From positions 1-64,000 of IMG/VR virus record IMGVR_UViG_3300037423_001433: a stretch of DNA of 64,000 nucleotides. One strand, 5' to 3'. Positions 2,356 to 54,570 of this stretch are shown one piece after another. The position numbers and the translations under genes were made by a program. Numbering within the stretch: position 1 is the first letter of the stretch; every line of letters starts with the position of its first letter. Origin of the DNA: a virus. Its lineage: Duplodnaviria > Caudoviricetes. The notes below the pieces were generated by a model that worked only from the letters and a program-made list of their open reading frames with translations, was not told the DNA's origin and did not search any database.

Positions 2356-2613
2356 ATGTGCGCAGTAAGTATGATTACAGACCACTACAGAGGTAAATGG
2401 CCTTTACCGGATTATAGCAAACCAGAAGACATTTCAGTAATTACAATTACTATAAAAGAATGGCAAAAGTATCAAGAACTAAAACGAAAAGCTCAAGAAT
2501 ACGATGAAAGAACAAATCAACCTGATCGTGTAAAACCTGATGTGGCTGAATGGGAAGCAAAAATAGAAGAAATTATTGAACGTAAAATTAAAGAAAATAA
2601 GGAAAATAAATGA
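2356..2613 (+). CDS. hypothetical phage protein
   Basis: 85-aa ORF in operon, MCAVSMITDHY N-terminus. Confidence 0.7.
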   Translation: MCAVSMITDHYRGKWPLPDYSKPEDISVITITIKEWQKYQELKRKAQEYDERTNQPDRVKPDVAEWEAKIEEIIERKIKENKENK

Positions 2614-3275
2614 AGAAAACTTTATTCATATTGTTAATGTTGGTAGTTGTTTTTGCTAATGCAGGAAGTTTTTCAAGCGGAGGTCGAGGATTTTCAGGAG
2701 GCGGATTTCGCAGTGGAGGGTTTTCAAGCTACCGTTCTACAAGCAGCTTTTCAAGGCCATCATACTCACGTCCATCATACTCACGTCCATCTTTAACAAC
2801 TGCAGCACCTTCTCGTACTATTACACGAACAACCATTGTTCGTAGCTACTCGCGGAATGTTTATAGCTCAGGTCATTACTACGGTGGATGGGGAATGGGT
2901 TATAGTTATCACAGTGGATTGATGACTGGCCTTATTCTAGGGAATTTGATGCATCCATATGGAACAGTTATGTACGCTGGCCCCGGCATTTATACAAATA
3001 ATGCTTTGTTATACCCTAATGGACAAGTAGTAAATCAACAAGGATATTTGGTAGGTAATTATATTAACGGGCAATTTATCCCAGTACAAAATGGTGCTAT
3101 GGTAGCTCAAGCAGTACCAACTGATGCTTATCAACAGCAATCTGCACAACCGGTACAACAGACAGCTCCACAACCTGTAATTGTACAACAAAGCATGGAT
3201 GCTGGCGTAGCAGCGTTACTCATTGTTTTCTCAGCAATATTTGCTATTATTATTTTAGCAATAATTATTCTTTAA
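2610..3275 (+). CDS. Gly/Ser-rich exported membrane protein
   Basis: signal peptide ending ANA, GGFS/SRPSY low-complexity region, Q-rich linker, C-terminal TM helix. Confidence 0.75.
   Translation: MKKTLFILLMLVVVFANAGSFSSGGRGFSGGGFRSGGFSSYRSTSSFSRPSYSRPSYSRPSLTTAAPSRTITRTTIVRSYSRNVYSSGHYYGGWGMGYSYHSGLMTGLILGNLMHPYGTVMYAGPGIYTNNALLYPNGQVVNQQGYLVGNYINGQFIPVQNGAMVAQAVPTDAYQQQSAQPVQQTAPQPVIVQQSMDAGVAALLIVFSAIFAIIILAIIIL
2757..2791 (+). repeat. 15-nt tandem repeat CCATCATACTCACGT x2.3 encoding SRPSY repeats
   Basis: direct reading of sequence. Confidence 0.9.
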
Positions 3276-25884: not shown

Positions 25885-26385
25885 TTATTTTTGGTCTTGA
25901 TCTTTCGGCCAAGCTTCCATCAATGTTTTTGCATCGTTTGCATGTCTGTCAGCTGTTTCTGCCATTGCAGAATATTTTCCTTGGCAGTCTGCAAGTATGG
26001 TTGTGAGGGTTGTGGTTGACTGACGGAGGGCATCAATGGAAGCTGTGGACACGCCGTTGCGGATATTTGCGAGGGTGTCACGCAAGCTGTTAGCAACAAT
26101 GGTGTTAGCATCAGACAGAGTTTTGATAAGTTCTTCACGATTTTGCGCATGTTGGTTTGCCTCCTGTAACTGTTCTTGATAGAATGCTTCTTTAGCTCGT
26201 GCAGCTATTTGAGCATTCAGCTCTTTGGTAGTGTATTCTGCTACTGCTTTTTGATACCCGATATCTTGCTCATGCTGGAGGAAAAGGTGAATACCAATCC
26301 CTATTCCCAAAATGAGCGCCCCTATCAGTACCACTTCTATGAGTAGTTTATAGGGCGACAAAAAATTCAACATAAAAACTCCCAA
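25885..26385 (-). CDS. Rz: inner-membrane spanin (Rz-like)
   Basis: N-terminal TM, GYQKAV, coiled-coil periplasmic domain, downstream of endolysin. Confidence 0.85.
   Translation of the reverse strand: MGVFMLNFLSPYKLLIEVVLIGALILGIGIGIHLFLQHEQDIGYQKAVAEYTTKELNAQIAARAKEAFYQEQLQEANQHAQNREELIKTLSDANTIVANSLRDTLANIRNGVSTASIDALRQSTTTLTTILADCQGKYSAMAETADRHANDAKTLMEAWPKDQDQK
25920..26150 (-). CDS. Rz1: outer-membrane lipoprotein spanin (Rz1-like), nested in Rz; likely start at MLTPLLLTAC
   Basis: lipobox LLTA-C, Pro-rich mature part, embedded in a different frame of Rz. Confidence 0.8.
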   Translation of the reverse strand: MRKIVKNLSKLCLMLTPLLLTACVTPSQISATACPQLPLMPSVSQPQPSQPYLQTAKENILQWQKQLTDMQTMQKH

Positions 26386-26603: not shown

Positions 26604-27137
26604 TTAAGCACCCAATACTTCTAGTGCACGTTTATAAAATGCTTGCCTACTTGCAAGCCCATTAATTCCACCATTAATCTTTCGAGTAATTGTGGTGAAA
26701 CTTTCTTCTGTTCCTATTTCTGCAATTTCAGACAAATGATGTGTTTTCCAGAACCATCCTGCACTTCTAGCAGCATTCTCCGGTAATTCAATCAATTCTG
26801 GATGATTTAAACAGTCTACATTCAACGCAAGCATTAAAGCTGCATAGTTTACTCTTCCAGTAATTTGAATCAAGCCACGGCCCTTATAACGAACGCCATC
26901 ACCCTTTTCAGTATTACCCAAATCTTTGCGCCCTTCATATGCCTCTCCAGACGCTAATTCTTTCACAAACAAAAGTTGCTCGCTTTCATGAGCTATTTGA
27001 GCCAAAAATGCTGCTTGTTGCAGAGGCGTAATAATTTCAAATTCAGCCATTGCTTTATTCAAAGGACTTAGAAATATCTCAGCCCTTTTATGTGCCTCTG
27101 GCATTATTTCTTGCAATTGAGAAAGTGTTATATCCAT
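26604..27137 (-). CDS. endolysin, glycoside hydrolase family 19
   Basis: AAFLAQIAHES, YEGRKDLGN, YKGRGLIQITGRVNY, INGGING. Confidence 0.93.
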   Translation of the reverse strand: MDITLSQLQEIMPEAHKRAEIFLSPLNKAMAEFEIITPLQQAAFLAQIAHESEQLLFVKELASGEAYEGRKDLGNTEKGDGVRYKGRGLIQITGRVNYAALMLALNVDCLNHPELIELPENAARSAGWFWKTHHLSEIAEIGTEESFTTITRKINGGINGLASRQAFYKRALEVLGA

Positions 27138-27244: not shown

Positions 27245-27421
27245 TTATTTTTTAAAATATTTGTTAATTAATTTTTGTACTGTCGCAGATTCGTATATTC
27301 TCAGACCTGTCCAAATGATTGAGAACAACGCAGCGATATGAGGTAATGTCCACCATCCCACGATTGATCCAATCACTGAAGTTATTGATATTGTGTCGAG
27401 AAAATGCTTCACATGTTCCAT
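27245..27421 (-). CDS. holin (58 aa), not in the ORF track
   Basis: MEHVKHFLDTISITSVIGSIVGWWTLPHIAALFSIIWTGLRIYESATVQKLINKYFKK: TM segments, basic C-terminus, upstream of endolysin. Confidence 0.75.
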   Translation of the reverse strand: MEHVKHFLDTISITSVIGSIVGWWTLPHIAALFSIIWTGLRIYESATVQKLINKYFKK

Positions 27422-34300: not shown

Positions 34301-34911
34301 CCCGGAACAAGAGTACCAGTTACAGTTATACCAATCGGGGAGTCAGTTTCTCCCCCTTGTAGTCCAACAGCCCATACCGTACCAACATAAGATTGTTTAC
34401 TTAATGTCATTGAGCCATTAGTAGAAGGGGACTCAATAGACATTCCTAAATTTCTTGGATAAAAATAAGATTCAGGAGGACAAGCACCTGTCAATGGATC
34501 ACGGTTAGCCCATCCAAATGGATGTCCTGCGATATAAACTTCTTCTATGCTTTCGCACTCATGCGCGGCTAATACACAAACTAAATATTTACTTGTACCA
34601 GCCGTGTCACCATTAATAATTGCCACAATAGAAGAGCCAACAATTGTTTCCCCATAGATGTATACATACGGGGATTCTCCGCTGACTGCTGTAATGGTTC
34701 TGTCATGTAACCCATTTATCCATTGTTGATAGGCGTCTTTTTCGGCTTTGCGTTGTTGCATAGAGCCATAAATAGCCATGCCAATAACCAAAATTAAGGC
34801 ATAATATGTCTCAACAAAAACGATAATTGCCGCTATTACTGGGGCAGCAAGAGCTAAAGAAGGAGTAATTAAGAGGGTAATGATAAGGCTGATAAATGTG
34901 ACCAAGCGCAT
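31336..34911 (-). CDS. tail tip / central fibre protein (lambda J-like, FN3 domains)
   Basis: YIYGETIVG, PSIQAVVKGKK, DNNALVAYDYL, YTFNG, FN3-like repeats with YEIR. Confidence 0.9.
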   Translation of the reverse strand: MRLVTFISLIITLLITPSLALAAPVIAAIIVFVETYYALILVIGMAIYGSMQQRKAEKDAYQQWINGLHDRTITAVSGESPYVYIYGETIVGSSIVAIINGDTAGTSKYLVCVLAAHECESIEEVYIAGHPFGWANRDPLTGACPPESYFYPRNLGMSIESPSTNGSMTLSKQSYVGTVWAVGLQGGETDSPIGITVTGTLVPGSTDLYEAGALVTGSISPGDFIYYTSPGDIPTVHIWPHMGTAGDPVDPVLHALNPTLWPSTATLDGFCYLVVQLHLSQSEFQAGIPSIQAVVKGKKILDVRTGTTAWSDNNALVAYDYLTSEMCGVDPSDIPLADYIAAANICDETNADDSSIPVDLGKRYTFNGTITADMAQEGTLEHIAQSMAGSIVSTTWSIAAGKYIAPVMPLDQSDIVGKVGITPSISDTQLYNGVKGQYIGPENDYALTDFTPYQNSTYVTADGLEKWTNIDFPFTDSVQRIHNLSRIFTEDQRNSYTVNAEFSLKTWPLKVSDRVTFTSSFFGFNDKIFRVTDKKFSPSGLVELTIKEDDPTIWDFADAVSAAPLTINDVENPYSIPAISSLTLSSGTDVLLLMPDGTVVSRILATWPQSTSLNVVAGGDIELQWIQLGTTTWHSTTVTGDSTAAYLSPVQDGQQYIVRIRAVNTPVNAKSAWFNSPAYTVIGKTQPPKDVTGFTYSLENFGITLTWNANTDVDLKEYEIRVGGTDWNSATLVAKTNSTHYFTKPTTSGNIPYRIKAIDTSGNYSTNEADTTVIVAVPSATSPTASISGQNVVINWSQVTGAFAIDHYEIRYGSSWAAGTPITSLYTTSYTEKVNFSGSKTYWIAAVDVAGNVGAVTGSVTVVVSIPHAVTITSQTIDNNVLLYWTDATATLPILSYEVRKGSTYASSTLIGTKQGLFTTVFETVAGLFTYWITGIDSAGNYGTPVGIAVNVNQPPDYVFRSSIDSTFTGTISNAFVETGGVIMPVNTTETWAQHFSTRSWTDVQDQINAGYPIYIEPADSPGYYEEVFDLGVTLGSNKITMSYLGSVIAGSPTITTTLSTSADNITYTSYSGVTEIYATGFRYIKIRIAVSGGATDLYKLTSLNVRVDSKLVNDAGVLNVVSTDSGGTTATFNIAFLDVTSINVTPMGTSAAYCVVNFTSIPNPTSFKVLLFDNTGTRLSGTVSWTARGH

Positions 34912-41623: not shown

Positions 41624-42025
41624 TTATGAGTCGTAACGATATTTAACCGTAATAGGGACGTATCTACGACCTGAATTATCTACTATTGCGCGTCCTGAAT
41701 TTGGAGTTTGTTCTACGCTCACGGGAGAGTCTTTAGGAACAACAGGGTACAAAGCAATAATGTTTTGAACTAGATCATCAACTTGCTTCGAGCCAGAACC
41801 ATCAATAACCACTACATTTATTTGAAACAATCCAATTTGTCTTGTTCTGATACCACCTAAATTAGGATTTAAAGTTTTTGAGTTCATCAGAAAACATTCT
41901 AAATAAGGTGCATCATCAGGTTTTGTAAATGGAACTCCTTCAAAAGAAACAGCAATTGGAGGATTTTGTGCATCAGCGAAGTTTTTTAGTTTCGTTTCAA
42001 AATAACTTCTAATAATATTAGCCAT
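41624..42025 (-). CDS. tail terminator protein (DUF4128-like)
   Basis: likely start MANIIRSYFETK; FEGVPF, GLFQINV, VPITVKYR. Confidence 0.8.
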   Translation of the reverse strand: MANIIRSYFETKLKNFADAQNPPIAVSFEGVPFTKPDDAPYLECFLMNSKTLNPNLGGIRTRQIGLFQINVVVIDGSGSKQVDDLVQNIIALYPVVPKDSPVSVEQTPNSGRAIVDNSGRRYVPITVKYRYDS

Positions 42026-42458
42026 TACTTGTAGCCCTTTGTATTGATAAAAACACCATTCGATAAGGGCCAATCGCGCCTGTGTATCCGTCTTCTTTTC
42101 TCCATCCAATAGTCTCAGCAAGTTGAGCATATGGCACATTGTTTGTCAGAGTTAAAGAGCCGTCTTTACCCAAGAATTCTGTTGTTCCTTGGAGTTCATT
42201 CACACGCTCTATGCTTGCTGCACCTGTTGGGCTTGTGTCATCTGTCAATTCAGATGAAAAATCATTTCCAATGCTCGGATACCATTGATTAGATAGTAAG
42301 CCTTTAGCAAAGTTAGGATGATTTACGTTAAAAGTAGGGGAAGGGGTAGATTCAACAATATCAGTAAAAAGATTCACTGCTGTGGTTGTAACTTGGGTAT
42401 TGACATCTTCTAATATTTTCTGTATATTATTTTTTATACTGTCTGAAAATGTGCCCAT
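42018..42458 (-). CDS. tail completion / neck protein (HK97 gp10-like)
   Basis: G.LSNQW, LTNNVPYA..ETIG, PYRMV. Confidence 0.75.
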   Translation of the reverse strand: MGTFSDSIKNNIQKILEDVNTQVTTTAVNLFTDIVESTPSPTFNVNHPNFAKGLLSNQWYPSIGNDFSSELTDDTSPTGAASIERVNELQGTTEFLGKDGSLTLTNNVPYAQLAETIGWRKEDGYTGAIGPYRMVFLSIQRATSNG

Positions 42459-42475: not shown

Positions 42476-42504
42476 ATTATAACACGAAAGTATCTATTTG
42501 TCAA
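42476..42504 (-). promoter_or_regulatory. sigma70 consensus promoter for tail genes
   Basis: TTGACA-17 nt-TATAAT on minus strand. Confidence 0.85.
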
Positions 42505-42511
42505 GTTATTT

Positions 42512-42910
42512 TTAACTTTGAGGTGGAGTTGGATTTTTAGATGACAAATATGTTTTTGCCAAATCAATCAGTTTATCCACTGTTTTAGTCCCTGCCCAAA
42601 CAAGCTGAAAAGAAATGTTCCAATAGAACAACTCTCTTAGTACTTTGACAAGACCATCCACATTATCTGTAGTACGAATTCCGTTCATTAACACATAGAC
42701 CAGCGCCCACGCACTAAAAACAAGAGAAATAGGGATTGCTGCACGAAGCCAGCTAACTTTGCCAGCATCATCCCTGAATGCATCTCCCCAATCGAAGTTA
42801 GCATCTTTTTGCTTAGAAAACATTGCCCAGAAGATACCAAGCAACAAAACAGCTAAAAGGAGTGCAGGAAAATCGATTTGAGAACAAATTTTTGTAATTG
42901 TGTCTAACAT
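42512..42910 (-). CDS. 2-3 TM membrane protein (holin-like topology)
   Basis: AAGGA RBS before ATG 42910; hydrophobic segments FPALLLAVLLLGIFWAMF and AAIPISLVFSAWALVYVLM. Confidence 0.7.
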   Translation of the reverse strand: MLDTITKICSQIDFPALLLAVLLLGIFWAMFSKQKDANFDWGDAFRDDAGKVSWLRAAIPISLVFSAWALVYVLMNGIRTTDNVDGLVKVLRELFYWNISFQLVWAGTKTVDKLIDLAKTYLSSKNPTPPQS

Positions 42911-42918
42911 ATTATTCC

Positions 42919-45096
42919 TTAGTATGGACTTGTATTTCCTAAATATTCCCAAATATATTTAGTCAGGCTCTTACCGCTTGCACAGAAACCTGATGTGTTG
43001 TGTCCACGGGTATAGATTGTGCATGAAGTGTTGTTTGCAGCTTCACATGTACCTGCCGTTGAAGTATCTGGGCCTTGGCATAGATCATCTTTAATAACAG
43101 CTTCATTAGGGAAAGGCCATAATGTAGTTCCTGTCAAACTCCCATTCACATATTTATTAACTATAGTAGCACCAATATTTCCGCTTGGATTTCCTGTATT
43201 ATATGCAGGCCCAGAAGTGATATCCGGTATCCATACAAAAGCAGGATCAGCATTGGTTGCATTTGGCATTACTGTATGAAGTGTGTTATTGCAATTCCAC
43301 CATAAATTTGCAGCTGTAGTAGGTGTGCCAGCGTACTGTTGGTTATAACATCCTGCAGATGTGTAACTACCCCCATCCACAAGCATATTTTTCATAGTGA
43401 CGGAATTATATGAATAAGAATCTAAACGCACTCCGTTACCATTTGAGCCATACACAGTGTTGTGATTTAATATAATATCGTGTGCGCTTCCTCTTGTGCT
43501 CGCTGTAGTATCAGCAGAAATCCACAAGCCACCCGCAGTACTTGAGTTAGAAACACCTATAACAGCATTATCATACGCTGTGAAAGTAGGTATAGTAGTA
43601 CCAGTTATGTCACTATACATTGAAGAGTGGGAGTCATAATAAAAACCGCCATTTCCACTTGTTGCTACTGTATTGATTGCAATATTGCCATACCAACTAA
43701 CTGTGCCAAGACCATATGGATAAGTGCTGTTTGTTACAGATGAAGTCGTAAATAACGGAGCATGCACATCTGCTGTACTGTCTGTTCCATTATCAAAATC
43801 TAATACAATACTGTTTTCTACAATAGAGTGATCTTCATCATATTGAACAATACCAGCTTTAGGTTGACCATCGGGAGCACCATCATAACGAGAGACACTT
43901 TCACGTACAATATTATTTACGCCACTATATAAAGCAAATGGATAACGTGCACCATAACCCCATGACCAGTCCCGTTCAAATACACAGCCATTGCAACGAT
44001 TAGAGCCTGCCCCAAATATGTTAGCTCCGCTCGAACCCGGCAACGAGTATCCTGCACCTGTGTCATGGATATAAATATTACTTGCACGAATATCTGCACT
44101 TGCTAATGTAGTACCTTGTGTGCAACCGCTTCCACCATTAGTGACTGTTGCAGTGCTAAGTGCTCCGCCACTTGTTGTAGTAATTGTATATTGTGCTCCA
44201 GTAATTCCACCACCCCAAATAGCTCCTAACCAAGAACTATTAGCTGAAAAACCACTACCTGCTTGTGCTATTGAAATACTACCAACTGCACCTCCAGAAC
44301 AAGTCACTGTTAATGCTGAACCTGTACCATTTGAGCTTCCATCAATATCAATTGGGCCTGAAGCAGAATGAATTGCTCTTAAATAACCAATTTCAATATT
44401 GCTACTACGCCAGATATAAATTGGAAGTTTAGTATATTGACCATCTATTGTGGCTGATGCAGTACCACTTGCACAACTTGGGGAACATAATGATCTTGTC
44501 CATCCAAAAAATCGAGTTGATTTTACTGATGTGCCTGAGACAAGATTGGTAGAGAATGATCCACCATTACCACCTAGTGATTGTCCTGCATAAGTGCCAT
44601 CATCAAAATATAGCGTATCCCCCGCAGACATCAATGGTAAAACATGATTTAATGTCGCAAATGGGCTTGTCCTGCTTCGTCCCGTGTTTGAATCACTGCC
44701 ACCGGGAGAAATCCACCATACATCAGAATCTTTTGGTGTGAATGTCGCCGCAGCATCTGTTGCTCCAGAAAATGTAAATGAACAATTACTTGCTGTTGAA
44801 GTACCTGTACACTTTGTTCCACCCCAATTATAAAGCTCACTTCCTGTGCCATGCACCGTGCTACTGGCATTTGATGATGCAGCTGTTGCTGTCAATGTTA
44901 CAGTAGCCCCATTACTAAATGATGCAGAGCATGTGCCGGGGCATGAAATACCTGCAGGACTAGATGTAATAGTTCCGTTCCCATTAACAGTAACTGTCAA
45001 TTGAGGAGCCGCAGGATTTATTAACCAAGGCATTACTAATGCTGATGTTATTGAGTAATAAAACATCAACAAGAAAGTGAGAATTATTTTTTTCAT
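42919..45096 (-). CDS. secreted protein: signal peptide, InlB-B-repeat-like Ig domain, right-handed beta-helix (pectin-lyase-like)
   Basis: MKKIILTFLLMFYYSITSA signal; LTVTVNGNGTITSSPAGISC...VTLTATA; WWISPGGSDSNTG...PFATL...GDTLYFDDGTY; many paired Cys. Confidence 0.75.
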   Translation of the reverse strand: MKKIILTFLLMFYYSITSALVMPWLINPAAPQLTVTVNGNGTITSSPAGISCPGTCSASFSNGATVTLTATAASSNASSTVHGTGSELYNWGGTKCTGTSTASNCSFTFSGATDAAATFTPKDSDVWWISPGGSDSNTGRSRTSPFATLNHVLPLMSAGDTLYFDDGTYAGQSLGGNGGSFSTNLVSGTSVKSTRFFGWTRSLCSPSCASGTASATIDGQYTKLPIYIWRSSNIEIGYLRAIHSASGPIDIDGSSNGTGSALTVTCSGGAVGSISIAQAGSGFSANSSWLGAIWGGGITGAQYTITTTSGGALSTATVTNGGSGCTQGTTLASADIRASNIYIHDTGAGYSLPGSSGANIFGAGSNRCNGCVFERDWSWGYGARYPFALYSGVNNIVRESVSRYDGAPDGQPKAGIVQYDEDHSIVENSIVLDFDNGTDSTADVHAPLFTTSSVTNSTYPYGLGTVSWYGNIAINTVATSGNGGFYYDSHSSMYSDITGTTIPTFTAYDNAVIGVSNSSTAGGLWISADTTASTRGSAHDIILNHNTVYGSNGNGVRLDSYSYNSVTMKNMLVDGGSYTSAGCYNQQYAGTPTTAANLWWNCNNTLHTVMPNATNADPAFVWIPDITSGPAYNTGNPSGNIGATIVNKYVNGSLTGTTLWPFPNEAVIKDDLCQGPDTSTAGTCEAANNTSCTIYTRGHNTSGFCASGKSLTKYIWEYLGNTSPY

Positions 45097-45097
45097 T

Positions 45098-45898
45098 CTA
45101 ATTAATTAGCCATATGCCGGGAACATAAGTTCCACCGCCGCCTCCACCACCGGCAGCACCTTTAATAACTACTGCTTCAACAACCGTGTGTTTTGATGTT
45201 GAATTTGTGATAGACGGCCAGCCTGCAGTAACACCACTCGAAGTTGCAGCCATCTGTTGACTAGCACTTGCAATTTGTGTAAAGCCTGTTTCATTATTGT
45301 TTGAAACACTTGCAGTAAATCCTGTTTGTGGTGTTCCAGCCGTAACTACAGATTGTGCACTTGAATCAAAATACTGAATCACGCAATCTGTTGCGACTGA
45401 TGTAGCAGCTGTAGTAATTGTATTGGTTGTTCCTGTTTGATCACCCGCAGCTGGAGGTGTGCCATCAAATATTGTTGTTCCATCCCAATTAGCAGCCGCT
45501 ATGTGATGATAAGCAATAACTACCGTGGTTCCAACACCATTTTTATTAACTGTAAGGGTTAGAGTTCCTGCAGCAGCACCAGTAGTAATTTTTGAAGTAT
45601 AAATAGCCAGCCCATGTGACGAAGTTGTGTAATAATCAACTTGTCTGGTATAAGTATTTCCTGCAGAATCCGTAATTCCACTGATTGCAGCAGGATCAGT
45701 ATTAAAATTGGCCAAACCAACAACAATCAAATCTCCAGCATTAACTGCATTTGTCAGAGGAGTCGTGCTAAAATTCGTCGTATTATCAGCTGCACCGGGG
45801 TCTGTTGCTGACCCCGTATTCGCGAATGTACATCCAGCAGCGTAGGAATTTACTATAAAAACAAATAGCAACAATAATGATAAAAGAATTTTTTTCAT
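45098..45898 (-). CDS. secreted Thr/Ala-rich beta-sandwich-like protein
   Basis: MKKILLSLLLLFVFIVNSYA signal; AGDLIVVG, ITDSAGNTY motifs; Gly6 linker before C-terminal tail. Confidence 0.75.
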   Translation of the reverse strand: MKKILLSLLLLFVFIVNSYAAGCTFANTGSATDPGAADNTTNFSTTPLTNAVNAGDLIVVGLANFNTDPAAISGITDSAGNTYTRQVDYYTTSSHGLAIYTSKITTGAAAGTLTLTVNKNGVGTTVVIAYHHIAAANWDGTTIFDGTPPAAGDQTGTTNTITTAATSVATDCVIQYFDSSAQSVVTAGTPQTGFTASVSNNNETGFTQIASASQQMAATSSGVTAGWPSITNSTSKHTVVEAVVIKGAAGGGGGGGTYVPGIWLIN

Positions 45899-47610
45899 TA
45901 TCTTGCAACCCTCCAATTGAGTGTAACTGCACCCGGTGTAATGGAGGAACTAGTCATATTGCAAACTTTAAAATTAACATTTCCAGCAGTAGGATACGCT
46001 ATAATTGTTAATGTTCCACTTGTGGACGGTGTATAACCTGTAATAGCAGTTGGATCGCCGTTAAAACCAGCTCGTACCACATCCGTTGTTGCAACACCTG
46101 TAGCAGCAACAGTAACGACAGTTGCGCATGTACCTGAGGAAATTGCACTTGTTCCCAATGCAGCAGTTCCGCTTGCTACCGTGTATGCCAAGGTTGCAGT
46201 CGCAACAGGTAATGTCAGAGTGTTAGAACCAAGTGCACCTGTTGGAGGAGAAATCGTAATAGAACCAGACGTAGCATTGTTATAAACAACTCCGCCTGCA
46301 CTTGTTCCAGATACACCTAGCGTAATTTTACTTGTGCCATCAGTCGTAATGCCTGCTACAACTTTTGTATCAGTTGTTCCTGCACCTAGCACGACAGAGT
46401 TTGCAGTCAAACTACCACCTGAAGCTGTTACAGTGCCAGAGCCACCGGGTGTTGCACAAGAACCATCACCACGCAAATATGTAGATGCGCTGCAAGTACC
46501 AGACCACAAGCCATAAATGTCAGAAGAAGTATAACTATGCCATTCCAAGCCAGTAGCGCCAGAATTCACACGCAATTGTTGCAAACCTGTACCAACTGCC
46601 AAAGAGGATAAAGCTGTAGGACTTGTAAAATATGGCAGAGATAAATTAGCAGGCGTGCCAGTTACATTCGCCATGGTTCCACCAGAACCAAAGTTTACTG
46701 TGGAACCATCAGTGCCTGTAAATGTCAAAGTATTGCTTGCTGTAAGCGTTTTACCATCAGCAACAGTTAATGTAGAGCCTGTTGCAGGTGCTGTGATCGT
46801 AACTTTGTTTACCGTTGTTGCTGTAGCAGCACCAATATTTGGAGTTGTCAAAGTCGGGCTTGTTGCAAGAACAATTCCACCAGAGCCTGTCGTCCCATTA
46901 GACATATCCGAAGCAGTAAGTTGGCCTACAGTAAAAGCCGCACCTGTGCTTGTTTGTTTTACTACTTGGGATGTTCCACCTGTAGCACTGAAATCTGTTG
47001 TGCCAGCTGGCAAAGTAATTACACTCCCTGTGCCAGCTGTAGCTGCTGGTTTAACTTGCAATGTGCCTGAAGTAGAGCCGCTAAAAGTTAAACTCAAACC
47101 TGTTGCTGCGCCGATATTAGGAGTAGATAAAGTCGGACTTATAGCCAAGACTACGGAGCCACTTCCAGTTGTACCATTTGTCAAATCTGATGCAGCTAAT
47201 GTCTGGCTTGCGCCTAATGCAACAGAATGACCTGCAATAGTAACTGAAGAATTTACCAAGTCTGTGTTTGCAACACTAGCGCATGATGCTGTACCCGACG
47301 CATTTAAACTACGTGGGAATTGATTTGTACATGATGTACCCGCATAAGCCCCTAATGCTCCTGCACCATTGTTTGTTTGCAAGTTACCGGAAACACCTGA
47401 AGGAGAAGAACCGCCTCCTGCTGGAGTCGCCCATGTGCCATCTCCACGCCAAAATGTAGTAGATGATGCACTTGTTCCACTGTTCAAATGAGAGACATCC
47501 AAGTTACCTTGAACTTGGTTTGCCAAATTTATCTTTGTTTGAGCAAAAACTGAGGATGCACTTATTGCAAGTGACATCAAAAAAAATTTAATACCTGTAC
47601 CAAGCCGCAT
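45898..47610 (-). CDS. fibre-like Thr/Ser/Gly-rich protein with signal peptide
   Basis: MRLGTGIKFFLMSLAISASSVFA signal; duplicated NGTTGSG.VVL..SPTL.TPNIGAAT and RGDG..ATP repeats; three Cys pairs. Confidence 0.75.
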   Translation of the reverse strand: MRLGTGIKFFLMSLAISASSVFAQTKINLANQVQGNLDVSHLNSGTSASSTTFWRGDGTWATPAGGGSSPSGVSGNLQTNNGAGALGAYAGTSCTNQFPRSLNASGTASCASVANTDLVNSSVTIAGHSVALGASQTLAASDLTNGTTGSGSVVLAISPTLSTPNIGAATGLSLTFSGSTSGTLQVKPAATAGTGSVITLPAGTTDFSATGGTSQVVKQTSTGAAFTVGQLTASDMSNGTTGSGGIVLATSPTLTTPNIGAATATTVNKVTITAPATGSTLTVADGKTLTASNTLTFTGTDGSTVNFGSGGTMANVTGTPANLSLPYFTSPTALSSLAVGTGLQQLRVNSGATGLEWHSYTSSDIYGLWSGTCSASTYLRGDGSCATPGGSGTVTASGGSLTANSVVLGAGTTDTKVVAGITTDGTSKITLGVSGTSAGGVVYNNATSGSITISPPTGALGSNTLTLPVATATLAYTVASGTAALGTSAISSGTCATVVTVAATGVATTDVVRAGFNGDPTAITGYTPSTSGTLTIIAYPTAGNVNFKVCNMTSSSITPGAVTLNWRVAR

Positions 47611-47851
47611 GTGTATCTCCGGTTGCCATTGCAACTGTGTAAGTAATAGTATTGCCACTCAATGTGTAATCAACTCCACCATTTTTCATAACAACGCCAT
47701 TGCGCATCAGAACTAAAGAAGCGGGAGGATTCGGTGAATGACCGAGCGTAAAAGTTGAACCGGGAATTGCACCAGATGGCGTCTCTGAATCTGTAAAATT
47801 AGGAACAGTTCCGCCACCGCTGCCTGTAGAGGATGATGGGCTAATAGGCAT
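47588..47851 (-). CDS. small Ig-like virion-associated protein
   Basis: FTLGHSP...VLMRNGVVM...DYTLSGNTITY pattern seen in phage fibre domains. Confidence 0.65.
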   Translation of the reverse strand: MPISPSSSTGSGGGTVPNFTDSETPSGAIPGSTFTLGHSPNPPASLVLMRNGVVMKNGGVDYTLSGNTITYTVAMATGDTHAAWYRY

Positions 47852-48135
47852 TATGCCTCCTGTACTAAAATTCGTGTGCCTGCTGCTGCGTCACAATACA
47901 CCCAAAGACCACTCTCCCCAGCGGATATATTTGCAAAACTCCCTACACTACCAGCATAAAGTGGTGCGCCAATCTGTGTATCTGTATCTGGAGAAGTCGC
48001 TTTAATACATAACAGGCAAGCATTGCTACCTTTATTATAAACATTAACTGCTGTACCAACAACGATCCCTGTTGCCGCGTATAAATCCGTCCAAGTTTGT
48101 GATGCAATCAATACATCGTCTCTTGTATTTGCCAT
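47851..48135 (-). CDS. putative small structural protein
   Basis: AAGGA RBS; WTDLYAATGI...NVYNKG. Confidence 0.65.
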   Translation of the reverse strand: MANTRDDVLIASQTWTDLYAATGIVVGTAVNVYNKGSNACLLCIKATSPDTDTQIGAPLYAGSVGSFANISAGESGLWVYCDAAAGTRILVQEA

Positions 48136-48148
48136 TACATTTCCTTAA

Positions 48149-48544
48149 TTATCGCCTTACATATAATTCAATTAAAACTTGATTATCCGCAGACGTATTT
48201 ATTTCTTTAAATGTTACTATCTTGTAGACAGTTGAGCCTATTTGTATTCTGTCACTTGTCGTGTCAATAGATATCGACGAACTAAAAGGTTCAGTTTTTT
48301 GAGGTGGTCTGATAAAAACTTGCTTGTCACCTACTTTAACTAAAGAATCTCCAGCCTCTCCCATGCCATCTTTTTTAAGATTAAAATCTAAAACGATTGC
48401 AGATACCGGGATTGAAGTCTGGGTTGCAGTATATTCACCCTGCGAAGGATCATAATTCCCTGCGTTTCCTCTTAAATAATAAGCTGTTCCTCCGAAATCT
48501 GAGAACATCGCGGCAACTGCAGCATCAAAATCTGAAGAGTCCAT
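48149..48544 (-). CDS. head closure / head-tail joining protein
   Basis: YDPSQGEY, VKVGDKQVFI, ELYVRR; synteny. Confidence 0.75.
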   Translation of the reverse strand: MDSSDFDAAVAAMFSDFGGTAYYLRGNAGNYDPSQGEYTATQTSIPVSAIVLDFNLKKDGMGEAGDSLVKVGDKQVFIRPPQKTEPFSSSISIDTTSDRIQIGSTVYKIVTFKEINTSADNQVLIELYVRR

Positions 48545-53898: not shown

Positions 53899-54570
53899 TT
53901 AAGCAGACTTAAATAGCAACCATTGCTCATCCTCTGCGGGAATCCAGCCTGTTAGTATTTTGTTTTTGATAGTGACCGCAGTTTTATTGGAAATTGGAAA
54001 AAGTTGTGTCAATTTCCTTGGCCCAGTTTTTGGTTTTTCTTTTAATTGTAAATATACCTCTTGTGCATATTTCCACATCTCATGGTTAGCACGAGGATGT
54101 TTCCAAGAAGGCCAATCTTTGCAGCCATTTCTGTTTAAATTTTTAATTAATTTTGCTACCGTTTCAGGAGAATGCTTCTTACCCTTCATTTTGGGTATTA
54201 AAGCTAACTTGTCTTTAGTCTCTTGTGAGAAATTTTTACGAGCCTGAGAGATTTTTGACCTAGACTCAATTGAAAGAGGAAAACCACCATGACCGCCTCC
54301 TGAAGCAATATTCCAACCAATATTAAATTTTGGTCTTAACTTGGCTTCAATTTCATAACAGTATTTTGATGGGCCTTCTACTAATATAGAAACTATTAAG
54401 GCTTCTCCATATTTTCTTATAGCCCTGTGGACAGGATACTCAGAACCATTTTTGGCAGCATTTTTATGCACTAAGTATCTTTTTGAAGCAGTTTTTGCGG
54501 AAACTCCAATATAGCCGTCTTTTAGTATATCTTTATGTTCTTCTAGGTGTATCCAGTAAACAACTGACAT
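53899..54570 (-). CDS. GIY-YIG/NUMOD3-type homing endonuclease
   Basis: VYW...GYIG, GWNIASGG, KKHSPET NUMOD3-like motif; free-standing between terL and portal. Confidence 0.85.
   Translation of the reverse strand: MSVVYWIHLEEHKDILKDGYIGVSAKTASKRYLVHKNAAKNGSEYPVHRAIRKYGEALIVSILVEGPSKYCYEIEAKLRPKFNIGWNIASGGGHGGFPLSIESRSKISQARKNFSQETKDKLALIPKMKGKKHSPETVAKLIKNLNRNGCKDWPSWKHPRANHEMWKYAQEVYLQLKEKPKTGPRKLTQLFPISNKTAVTIKNKILTGWIPAEDEQWLLFKSA

Follow-up and report, generated by a model that had tools for sequence, protein, structure and literature searches.

The IMG/VR virus record IMGVR_UViG_3300037423_001433 (Duplodnaviria; Caudoviricetes) is 82,878 bp long with direct terminal repeats, indicating a complete phage genome; its first 64,000 nt are the stretch of DNA analyzed here (the window). 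The subject of this study is a set of genes at 42,512–48,135, in the late operon of this siphovirus-type phage, between the genes for head closure (Hc1, 48149-48544; PHROGs phrog_161, 1.3e-10) and tail completion (Neck1, 42018-42458; phrog_169, 2.2e-11). From the sequence alone, an original prediction had described it as a cassette of six tightly packed genes, three of them encoding proteins that are exported and folded under oxidizing conditions. All six open reading frames (ORFs) were found, on the minus strand like every feature given below unless stated otherwise. They are named here for their lengths in amino acids. In order of transcription, g94 (47851-48135) is a small jelly-roll/cupin-like protein (phrog_4770, 1.7e-20); g87 (47588-47851) is leaderless, with a weak match to a tail-fiber N-terminus (phrog_18673, 1e-4); g570 (45898-47610) is an export-tagged, tail-fiber-like protein, with a Sec leader at 47542-47610 and a C-terminal domain (CTD; residues ~476-570, 45901-46185) that serves as the marker domain for the cassette; g266 (45098-45898) is an export-tagged double beta-sandwich, judging from its leader and an AlphaFold2 model; g725 (42919-45096) is export-tagged and by its homologues combines an InlB-B-repeat-like domain with a right-handed beta-helix; and g132 (42512-42910) is a membrane protein whose hydrophobic segments suggest two to three transmembrane (TM) passes.

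The genes overlap or lie 1-13 nt apart. The 3′ end of g87 overlaps the start of g570 by 23 nt in another frame, the g266 start overlaps the g570 stop (TAATG), and g725 begins 1 nt past the g266 stop. The g570 ATG has a Shine-Dalgarno sequence of its own, GGAGA, 5 nt upstream. A frameshift fusion of g87 to g570, which would make the leader internal, was considered and is judged improbable in view of this ribosome-binding site and start codon and of homologues with free-standing leaders. Between 42919 and 48135 the minus strand has no promoter-like site matching at 10 or more of 12 positions and no convincing terminator. Together with the tight and overlapping junctions, this suggests that the cassette is co-transcribed late with the head genes, in line with the late expression originally proposed. 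The next promoter is the one predicted for the tail genes, a TTGACA-17-TATAAT sigma-70 site (12/12 consensus positions, with an extended -10 TG) at 42476-42504, before the tail-completion gene.

The three consecutive leaders of g570, g266, and g725 each combine a positively charged n-region, an uncharged hydrophobic core, and a small-residue cleavage site, as claimed; predicted cleavage is at VFA↓Q, SYA↓A, and TSA↓L, respectively. Signal peptides here and in the comparisons below were called not with SignalP but with a home-made rule set, which examines the first ~30 residues for a positive n-region, an uncharged hydrophobic h-region of at least 8 residues, and small residues at -3/-1. This rule accepts g570 (cleavage after residue 23), g266 (20-22), and g725 (19), and rejects g94, g87, and g132 at their annotated starts. 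Alternatively, g266 could be a lipoprotein cleaved at AAG↓C. Three adjacent strong leaders among the 84 ORFs of the window have a chance probability of about 0.05, which is mildly unlikely.

A search for the cassette elsewhere, with a CTD alignment as the probe, recovered 76 viral contigs and 14 loci in metagenome-assembled genomes (MAGs), mostly of Acidobacteriota (numbered here with the prefix L). Leader rates were calculated over 88 distinct, non-redundant CTD loci. A leader was called for 85% of the CTD genes, 87% of the next genes (position +1, typically ~250 amino acids), 67% of the following genes (+2), and 40% of the genes preceding the CTD gene (-1), against 14.5% of the other ORFs in these loci. 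The recurrence of leaders at 85-87% over this background settles the question of chance, which the window by itself could not do. The leaders are also kept in relatives only 36-63% identical, with signal peptidase I (SPase I) sites where the copy is phage-borne and lipoboxes where it is bacterial; homologues of both kinds thus retain the leader, rather than using downstream starts that lack it. That the leaders are real and under selection is strongly supported by these comparisons.

Very often in these loci the residue that follows the predicted cleavage site is Gln (A↓Q, G↓Q), as it is in g570 (47539-47541). An N-terminal pyroglutamate “Q-rule” has been described for Bacteroidota; the frequent mature N-terminal Gln resembles it, though most of the linked MAGs are Acidobacteriota.

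The original prediction also drew attention to composition, and this too was borne out. Gly, Ala, Ser, and Thr together make up 57% of g570, 50% of g266, and 47% of g725, and the cysteines lie mostly in close pairs and are even in number (6, 2, and 16). In the CTD family, both members of a near-invariant Cys pair (C495 and C550 in g570) are kept in 73 of 75 leader-bearing proteins. The clearly leaderless CTD proteins, four in number and with ordinary fiber N-termini, have A/V or S/S at both columns (Fisher p 1e-5 when the comparison is limited to the clear cases and 0.004 when nine ambiguous starts are included). A similar pattern is found among the homologues of g570, of which there are more than 2600. 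In the best 119, about 42% have leaders: the mature parts of the 50 leader-bearing proteins have a median of 8 Cys, with none lacking Cys altogether and 44 (88%) having an even number, while the 69 leaderless proteins have a median of 2, with thirteen having none and 19 of the remaining 56 (34%) an even number (Mann-Whitney p 1e-11 for the counts). This is the signature expected of disulfide-bonded exported proteins as opposed to their cytoplasmic relatives. The lysis genes of the phage include an embedded Rz/Rz1 spanin pair, which shows the host to be diderm; leaders together with conserved, even-numbered cysteines that are missing from leaderless relatives then imply export to an oxidizing periplasm and disulfide formation there, much as the original prediction had it.

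Conservation on this scale also bears on a simpler possibility, foreseen in the original prediction as a ground for refutation, that the cassette is a decaying, unexpressed insert of host origin. Its G+C content (0.43-0.455) is somewhat above that of neighboring genes, and it is missing from close relatives of the phage; but the ORFs are intact and tightly coupled, and the module, its leaders, and its Cys pairs are conserved in 88 loci. Decay is contradicted by this and seems hardly credible as an explanation.

Among the recovered loci, the arrangement recurs in phage contigs of sipho-, myo-, and podo-like type as well as in bacterial exopolysaccharide (EPS) loci, mostly of Acidobacteriota, and its position in phage genomes varies. 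The leader-bearing trio is found in the high-GC phage-like contigs L003 (where it comes straight after the portal gene), L004, and L008. Runs of four to five leader-bearing genes lie between the tail-fiber/baseplate and lysis genes in L010 (myovirus-type) and L011 (SU10-like), with similar runs in L006 (likewise by the lysis genes) and L007. In the window, the cassette occupies a slot in the neck region. Of the bacterial examples, a leader-plus-CTD protein is encoded in an Acidobacteriota chromosomal glycosyltransferase cluster, and a leader-bearing trio of 602, 1031, and 552 amino acids is found at 7953-15162 of L021, a 607-kb Acidobacteriaceae contig. This trio is directly behind a gene for an extracytoplasmic function (ECF) sigma factor that overlaps its start, with no phage genes detected nearby, an arrangement suggesting that the bacterial version may be under regulation of the envelope-stress type.

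The g570 protein is a mosaic of leader, fiber repeats, and the 95-residue lectin-like CTD, with its six cysteines in three pairs. The repeats match phrog_6002 (virion structural), and residues 250-314 are matched at 55-67% by virion structural proteins of cyanomyoviruses. The AlphaFold2 model of the CTD is a beta-sandwich with predicted local distance difference test (pLDDT) values of 94-98 over the domain. Foldseek found no PDB match at E<=1e-3 for this model or for that of g266, but the best structural matches of the CTD, with Z scores of 6-7 by two aligners, are to C-terminal domains of phage tailspikes and depolymerases and to H-type lectins. A tblastn search with the CTD against 50,697 GenBank phage records gave no match, which leaves the domain without a cultured example. 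In its repeats and distal domain g570 thus looks like a virion fiber, but not in having an N-terminal virion-attachment domain and folding in the cytoplasm: the N-termini of the cassette proteins are signal peptides. A pair of homologues is instructive here. Residues 222-831 of a leaderless 850-residue protein in L009 align with residues 22-620 of a leader-bearing 641-residue protein in L010, so that the leader of the second stands in the place of a 220-residue N-terminal region of the first. Two other ideas about g570 were discarded. The CTD might have been a trimeric-autotransporter anchor or a sorting domain of the type IX secretion system, but the modeled domain is a beta-sandwich, soluble and containing a conserved pair of Cys, that matches tailspike C-domains; and g570 is not a decoy copy of the phage's own 767-residue fiber, to which it has no similarity.

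The second export-tagged protein, g266, is rare at the sequence level: 24 relatives were found in 1.8e9 representatives, most of those inspected being leaderless phage proteins. Its AlphaFold2 model (pLDDT 85.5) is a double beta-sandwich, and at its C-terminal end the protein has a run of Gly and a short hydrophobic strand. The model has 73 BFVD matches at E<=1e-3, among them many actinophage minor tail proteins, and the same fold is found embedded in Acidobacteriota DUF1565/Pel9A-type beta-helix proteins. In the PDB the best match by VIA-align is a bicupin/jelly-roll with a Z of only 6.0, which does not allow g266 to be assigned to a specific fold family from that source. The C-terminus of g266 (…VPGIWLIN, 45098-45130) shares a short hydrophobic peptide with the mature N-terminus of g725 (LVMPWLIN…, 45016-45040), and a 224-residue leader-bearing protein of L010 ends similarly (…VPSVWVIN, L010 12900-12944); this peptide could conceivably be a docking strand. 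Most of the ~250-residue +1 proteins in L029-L068 begin their mature part with a different motif, G-x-x-P-G-P-G (for example QGGMGPGPG or SLPFPGPGG). This is not found in g266, and a second, commoner +1 family therefore exists.

For g725, neither Pfam nor hmmscan gave anything at E<=0.1, including any match to PF18998, but hundreds of proteins matching its residues ~30-120 at 40-50% identity carry that domain, a divergent InlB B-repeat. Searching the six cassette-region proteins against Pfam likewise gave nothing above threshold, and there was no match to g725 by tblastn in the 50,697 GenBank phages. The family profile matches a PL9 rhamnogalacturonan lyase (5olq) at 1.5e-4, the match being confined to 47 residues of the N-cap. 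The closest informative relatives are bacterial: P0002, a chromosomal lipoprotein 63% identical to g725 and matching in architecture, and P0009, a lipoprotein 46% identical, with a weak match to PF22842 (Pel9A-like), encoded in an EPS biosynthesis cluster with Wzy, GT4, flippase, and Wza genes. All full-length relatives begin with SPase I or lipobox leaders, and four of the 16 cysteines are invariant in the family. These features make g725 a candidate polysaccharide depolymerase. Of ten +2 proteins from other loci, most had no Pfam match, two matched Beta_helix, and a few had Ig/TIG domains; the term “enzyme” is accordingly not established for most of these.

The boundaries of the insertion can be drawn by comparison with two colinear relatives that lack the cassette, the 84.9-kb contig L104 and an ENA contig. 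Both have the order adaptor, Hc1, g94 homologue, variable slot, tail completion; the slot holds a single leaderless fiber of 297 amino acids in L104, recognized by eye as having Phage_fiber_2-like repeats, and two proteins of 119 and 130 amino acids in the ENA contig. The g94 homologues, directly after Hc1, are 57-65% identical to g94, whose atlas neighbors are 90-95% viral and which has no relative in the other cassette loci. L104 also has a TTGACA/TATAAT pair at the matching junction, after the 297-residue fiber. Since g94 homologues are retained in both relatives and the promoter in L104, g94 and the promoter are assigned to the phage backbone, leaving g87 through g132 as the insert; the promoter at 42476-42504 is thus not specific to the cassette. 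A blastn search of the region against GenBank phages found only two short repeat matches. The insert is accessory in the sense that it is missing from close relatives at this site and differs in position among phages, but it lacks the promoter and terminator of its own that are a further mark of a moron.

The two small unsignalled proteins at 47588-48135 had been proposed as possible docking parts for the exported ones, and of these only g87 is linked to the cassette, g94 being a conserved connector component. The g87 protein consists of a short N-terminus and a 65-residue C-terminal beta domain. Its first residues resemble, in a by-eye comparison over a short stretch, the N-terminus of the L104 neck-slot fiber, while its C-terminal domain is otherwise confined to leaderless proteins encoded at position -1, just ahead of export-tagged CTD genes (L033 and L036). 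The pattern looks like recombination within a resident neck-fiber gene. A jackhmmer comparison among the small proteins at -1 and -2 of the 88 loci revealed no shared family.

The last gene of the insert, g132, does encode the membrane protein originally described, with two strong hydrophobic segments at residues ~8-34 and 55-78. The ATG at 42910, with AAGGA 6 nt upstream, is most likely its start, though a 146-residue form could begin from a TTG at 42952. No relatives were detected in the other cassette loci, and Pfam matches were all sub-threshold. It was considered as a holin and rejected: a separate lysis set, with an endolysin, a 58-residue two-TM holin candidate, and Rz/Rz1, lies ~15 kb away.

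If the exported proteins have a common function, it could be exercised free of the virion or as part of it. The explanation favored here, with middling confidence, is that they constitute a mobile, disulfide-stabilized module that acts apart from the virion, binding and cutting envelope glycan. The cassette (g570, g266, g725, and probably g87 and g132) would be an accessory module inserted into a variable neck-fiber slot. Its three large proteins would be versions of receptor-binding components, namely a lectin-tipped fiber, a beta-sandwich resembling minor tail proteins, and a beta-helix depolymerase, in each of which a virion-anchoring N-terminus has been exchanged for a Sec signal peptide. 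Made late, with the head proteins, they would accumulate in the periplasm and there bind and cut the host's own envelope polysaccharide (of EPS, capsule, or O-antigen type) during its export. Lysis would release them as stable soluble proteins, and with the glycan stripped and masked on the dying cell and in its surroundings, progeny could escape the matrix and avoid re-binding to debris. They would not be stoichiometric parts of the virion. The bacterial loci, whether in EPS clusters, glycosyltransferase clusters, or the ECF-sigma island, suggest that components of the module can work in bacteria without virions, and g725 has the whole architecture of a bacterial secreted enzyme with no phage-specific anchor.

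The soil origin of the phage and the beta-helix and carbohydrate-binding-like folds could also be read in nutritional terms, the cassette being a set of auxiliary metabolic genes whose secreted products help the host degrade external polysaccharides for carbon. Signal peptides are found on ~5% of 64,678 carbohydrate-active enzymes (CAZymes) of soil prophages, which have been interpreted as carbon-cycling auxiliary metabolic genes (PMC13507307). There is a likeness to the cassette in soil phage origin, carbohydrate activity, and signal peptides, but that survey treats single enzymes as metabolic genes, with no fiber-led syntenic module and no covariation of leaders and cysteines. Genes placed in a late operon by structural and lysis genes would leave little time for metabolic benefit, the constant partner in the cassettes is a tail-fiber-type protein and not a CAZyme, and the bacterial relatives are in clusters for EPS synthesis rather than in catabolic loci. 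We regard a metabolic role as quite improbable.

Position in the late operon likewise bears on receptor masking or superinfection exclusion, in which infected or lysogenic cells would be closed to a second infection because the exported proteins bind to the glycan that serves this phage as receptor, or take it away. Functional precedents are Llp of T5, here with fiber-derived parts instead, and Cor. Exported proteins with receptor-binding-type folds and a predicted glycan-cutting enzyme would suit such a role, and some of the loci are in bacterial chromosomes or prophages. Against this, genes in a late structural operon without a promoter of their own would be expressed too late, g570 does not resemble the 767-residue fiber of the phage itself, and no integrase or repressor was seen in the genome with its direct terminal repeats, although neither was searched for. 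Masking is thus unlikely, if somewhat less so than a metabolic role; the late-operon placement and the ties of the bacterial relatives to EPS synthesis make both less likely.

A larger challenge comes from the structural resemblances themselves. The proteins could be virion appendages that mature in the periplasm: exported and disulfide-folded, they would dock at lysis, once the holin has merged the two compartments, here at the neck and perhaps on g87. Several observations weigh against action free of the virion, and most of them would be accommodated by such appendages. All three folds are typical of receptor-binding parts of virions (the g570 repeats, CTD-like tailspike C-domains, and the minor tail proteins that g266 resembles); cassettes occupy appendage slots of structural operons, the neck slot holding in L104 a leaderless fiber with a g87-like N-terminus; a leaderless g87-domain protein precedes the exported fiber in three loci, the window, L033, and L036; and some leader-bearing fiber homologues keep a canonical fiber N-terminal motif straight after the leader. 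These four points of fold, slot, N-terminal motif, and g87 domain would fit virion attachment as well as free action, or better. A long fiber, moreover, has no obvious job in the periplasm, which is as far as Sec export reaches in a diderm cell, so that any extracellular action depends on lysis. Two further reservations concern the calls themselves: leaders were identified by a home-made heuristic in place of SignalP, and the beta-helix assignment of g725 comes only from its homologues and the N-cap match. Docking at lysis is mechanically conceivable: in vitro, T4 and P22 tail fibers and tailspikes join particles of their own accord, and the lesions made by holins are very large. But we know of no precedent for periplasm-matured appendages in a tailed phage. 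The occurrence of the same protein types where there are no virions, in EPS clusters and an ECF-sigma island, argues for independence from the virion, as do the secreted-enzyme architecture and missing anchor of g725 and the replacement of an anchor region by a leader in the L009/L010 pair. In addition, the phage already has complete leaderless fibers, and the cassette varies in position among phages and is missing from close relatives. Periplasm-matured appendages are a real but less likely possibility, and a free-acting module remains the preferred explanation.

Parts of such a module have known counterparts. Tail fibers and tailspikes are generally taken to be cytoplasmic, cysteine-poor parts of the virion. 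Tailspike and tail-fiber depolymerases such as KP32gp38, phi297 gp61, AP22 gp54, and the P22 tailspike share with the cassette the beta-helix enzyme type, fiber repeats, a C-terminal lectin-like beta-sandwich common to the CTD (Z 6-7), direction at glycans, and a place in the late structural region; but they are leaderless, folded in the cytoplasm, and anchored to the virion by their N-termini, whereas the cassette proteins have Sec leaders and conserved Cys pairs, and the CTD family, unlike them, is unmatched in the 50,697 GenBank phage records. Bdellovibrio MAT fibers are tail-fiber-like trimeric proteins, exported by the bacterium, that act outside virions. The C-domain of one of them, Bd2133, is among the weak fold matches of g266, a resemblance of fold and not of sequence; the MAT fibers are genes of a bacterial predator and not phage-borne.

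Export by itself is not new among phages. Lambda Lom and Bor and T5 Llp are exported phage morons, and Sec-exported phage proteins also include Lys44 of fOg44 and the signal-arrest-release (SAR) endolysins (PMC6116005). Like the cassette proteins these are phage-encoded and use the host Sec system, some from within late operons, but they are muralytic enzymes or small outer-membrane proteins and lipoproteins, each the product of a single gene, and are not receptor-binding homologues. On the bacterial side, WceF of Pantoea stewartii is an exported tailspike-like beta-helix enzyme that trims the cell's own EPS (PMC7949094). Glycanases of EPS clusters, of the WceF/AlgL/PslG type, resemble g725 in being exported and in genomic setting, to the extent that its relative P0009 is likewise in an EPS cluster. 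WceF differs in having a Tat signal and in being a host gene, where the leader of g725 is of Sec type, its N-domain resembles an InlB repeat, and the gene is phage-borne along with those for an exported fiber and a beta-sandwich protein. In open-access full texts there was no description of a phage module led by a signal-peptide-bearing tail-fiber homologue, nor of covariation between leaders and cysteines; the exported, fiber-led syntenic module is apparently undescribed.

If these proteins act freely, phages would be deploying an exported, oxidation-hardened glycan-binding and -cutting kit against matrix-rich hosts, with consequences for how phages spread in soil and biofilms and for the search for stable depolymerases. 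If they join virions at lysis, a class of tailed phages would mature part of its receptor-binding equipment outside the cytoplasm, and virions would be assembled in a categorically new way that involves two cell compartments. In either case the covariation of leaders and cysteines offers a simple rule for separating two classes of receptor-binding homologues in viromes, and a warning to annotators that not every fiber-like phage gene encodes a virion protein.

The window stretch is present in three soil metagenome DNA runs, one of them possibly its source, with no RNA run listed in the sequencing-run look-up. The late genes on the minus strand run from terminase through portal, S49 protease, scaffold, decoration protein, major capsid, adaptor, and Hc1, and after the cassette continue with tail completion, tail terminator, major tail protein, chaperones, tape measure, and distal tail; the head genes share 42-46% identity with their counterparts in Pakpunavirus-like phages that infect Pseudomonas, Limnohabitans, and Curvibacter. 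A 223-residue ORF (53899-54570) lies between the large terminase and portal genes, and L104 has a 234-residue gene at the equivalent place.

The phage's own leaderless fibers, 3′ of the distal tail gene, are a J-like central fiber of 1191 amino acids and the 767-residue fiber, whose C-terminus resembles, by eye, an S74-type intramolecular chaperone. The start of the J-like fiber (34750-34911) has ~50 near-uninterrupted hydrophobic residues before the first charged cluster, in two helix-length segments, as though a membrane hairpin had been joined to a tail-tip protein. The canonical lysis set follows: the holin candidate (27245-27421), a GH19-type endolysin (26604-27137), and an i-spanin (25885-26385) within which a lipobox o-spanin is embedded in another frame (25920-26150). 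Near the start of the window, two plus-strand genes (1783-2313 and 2610-3275) also have strong signal peptides; the product of the first resembles, again by eye, a SleB/CwlJ-type cell-wall hydrolase.

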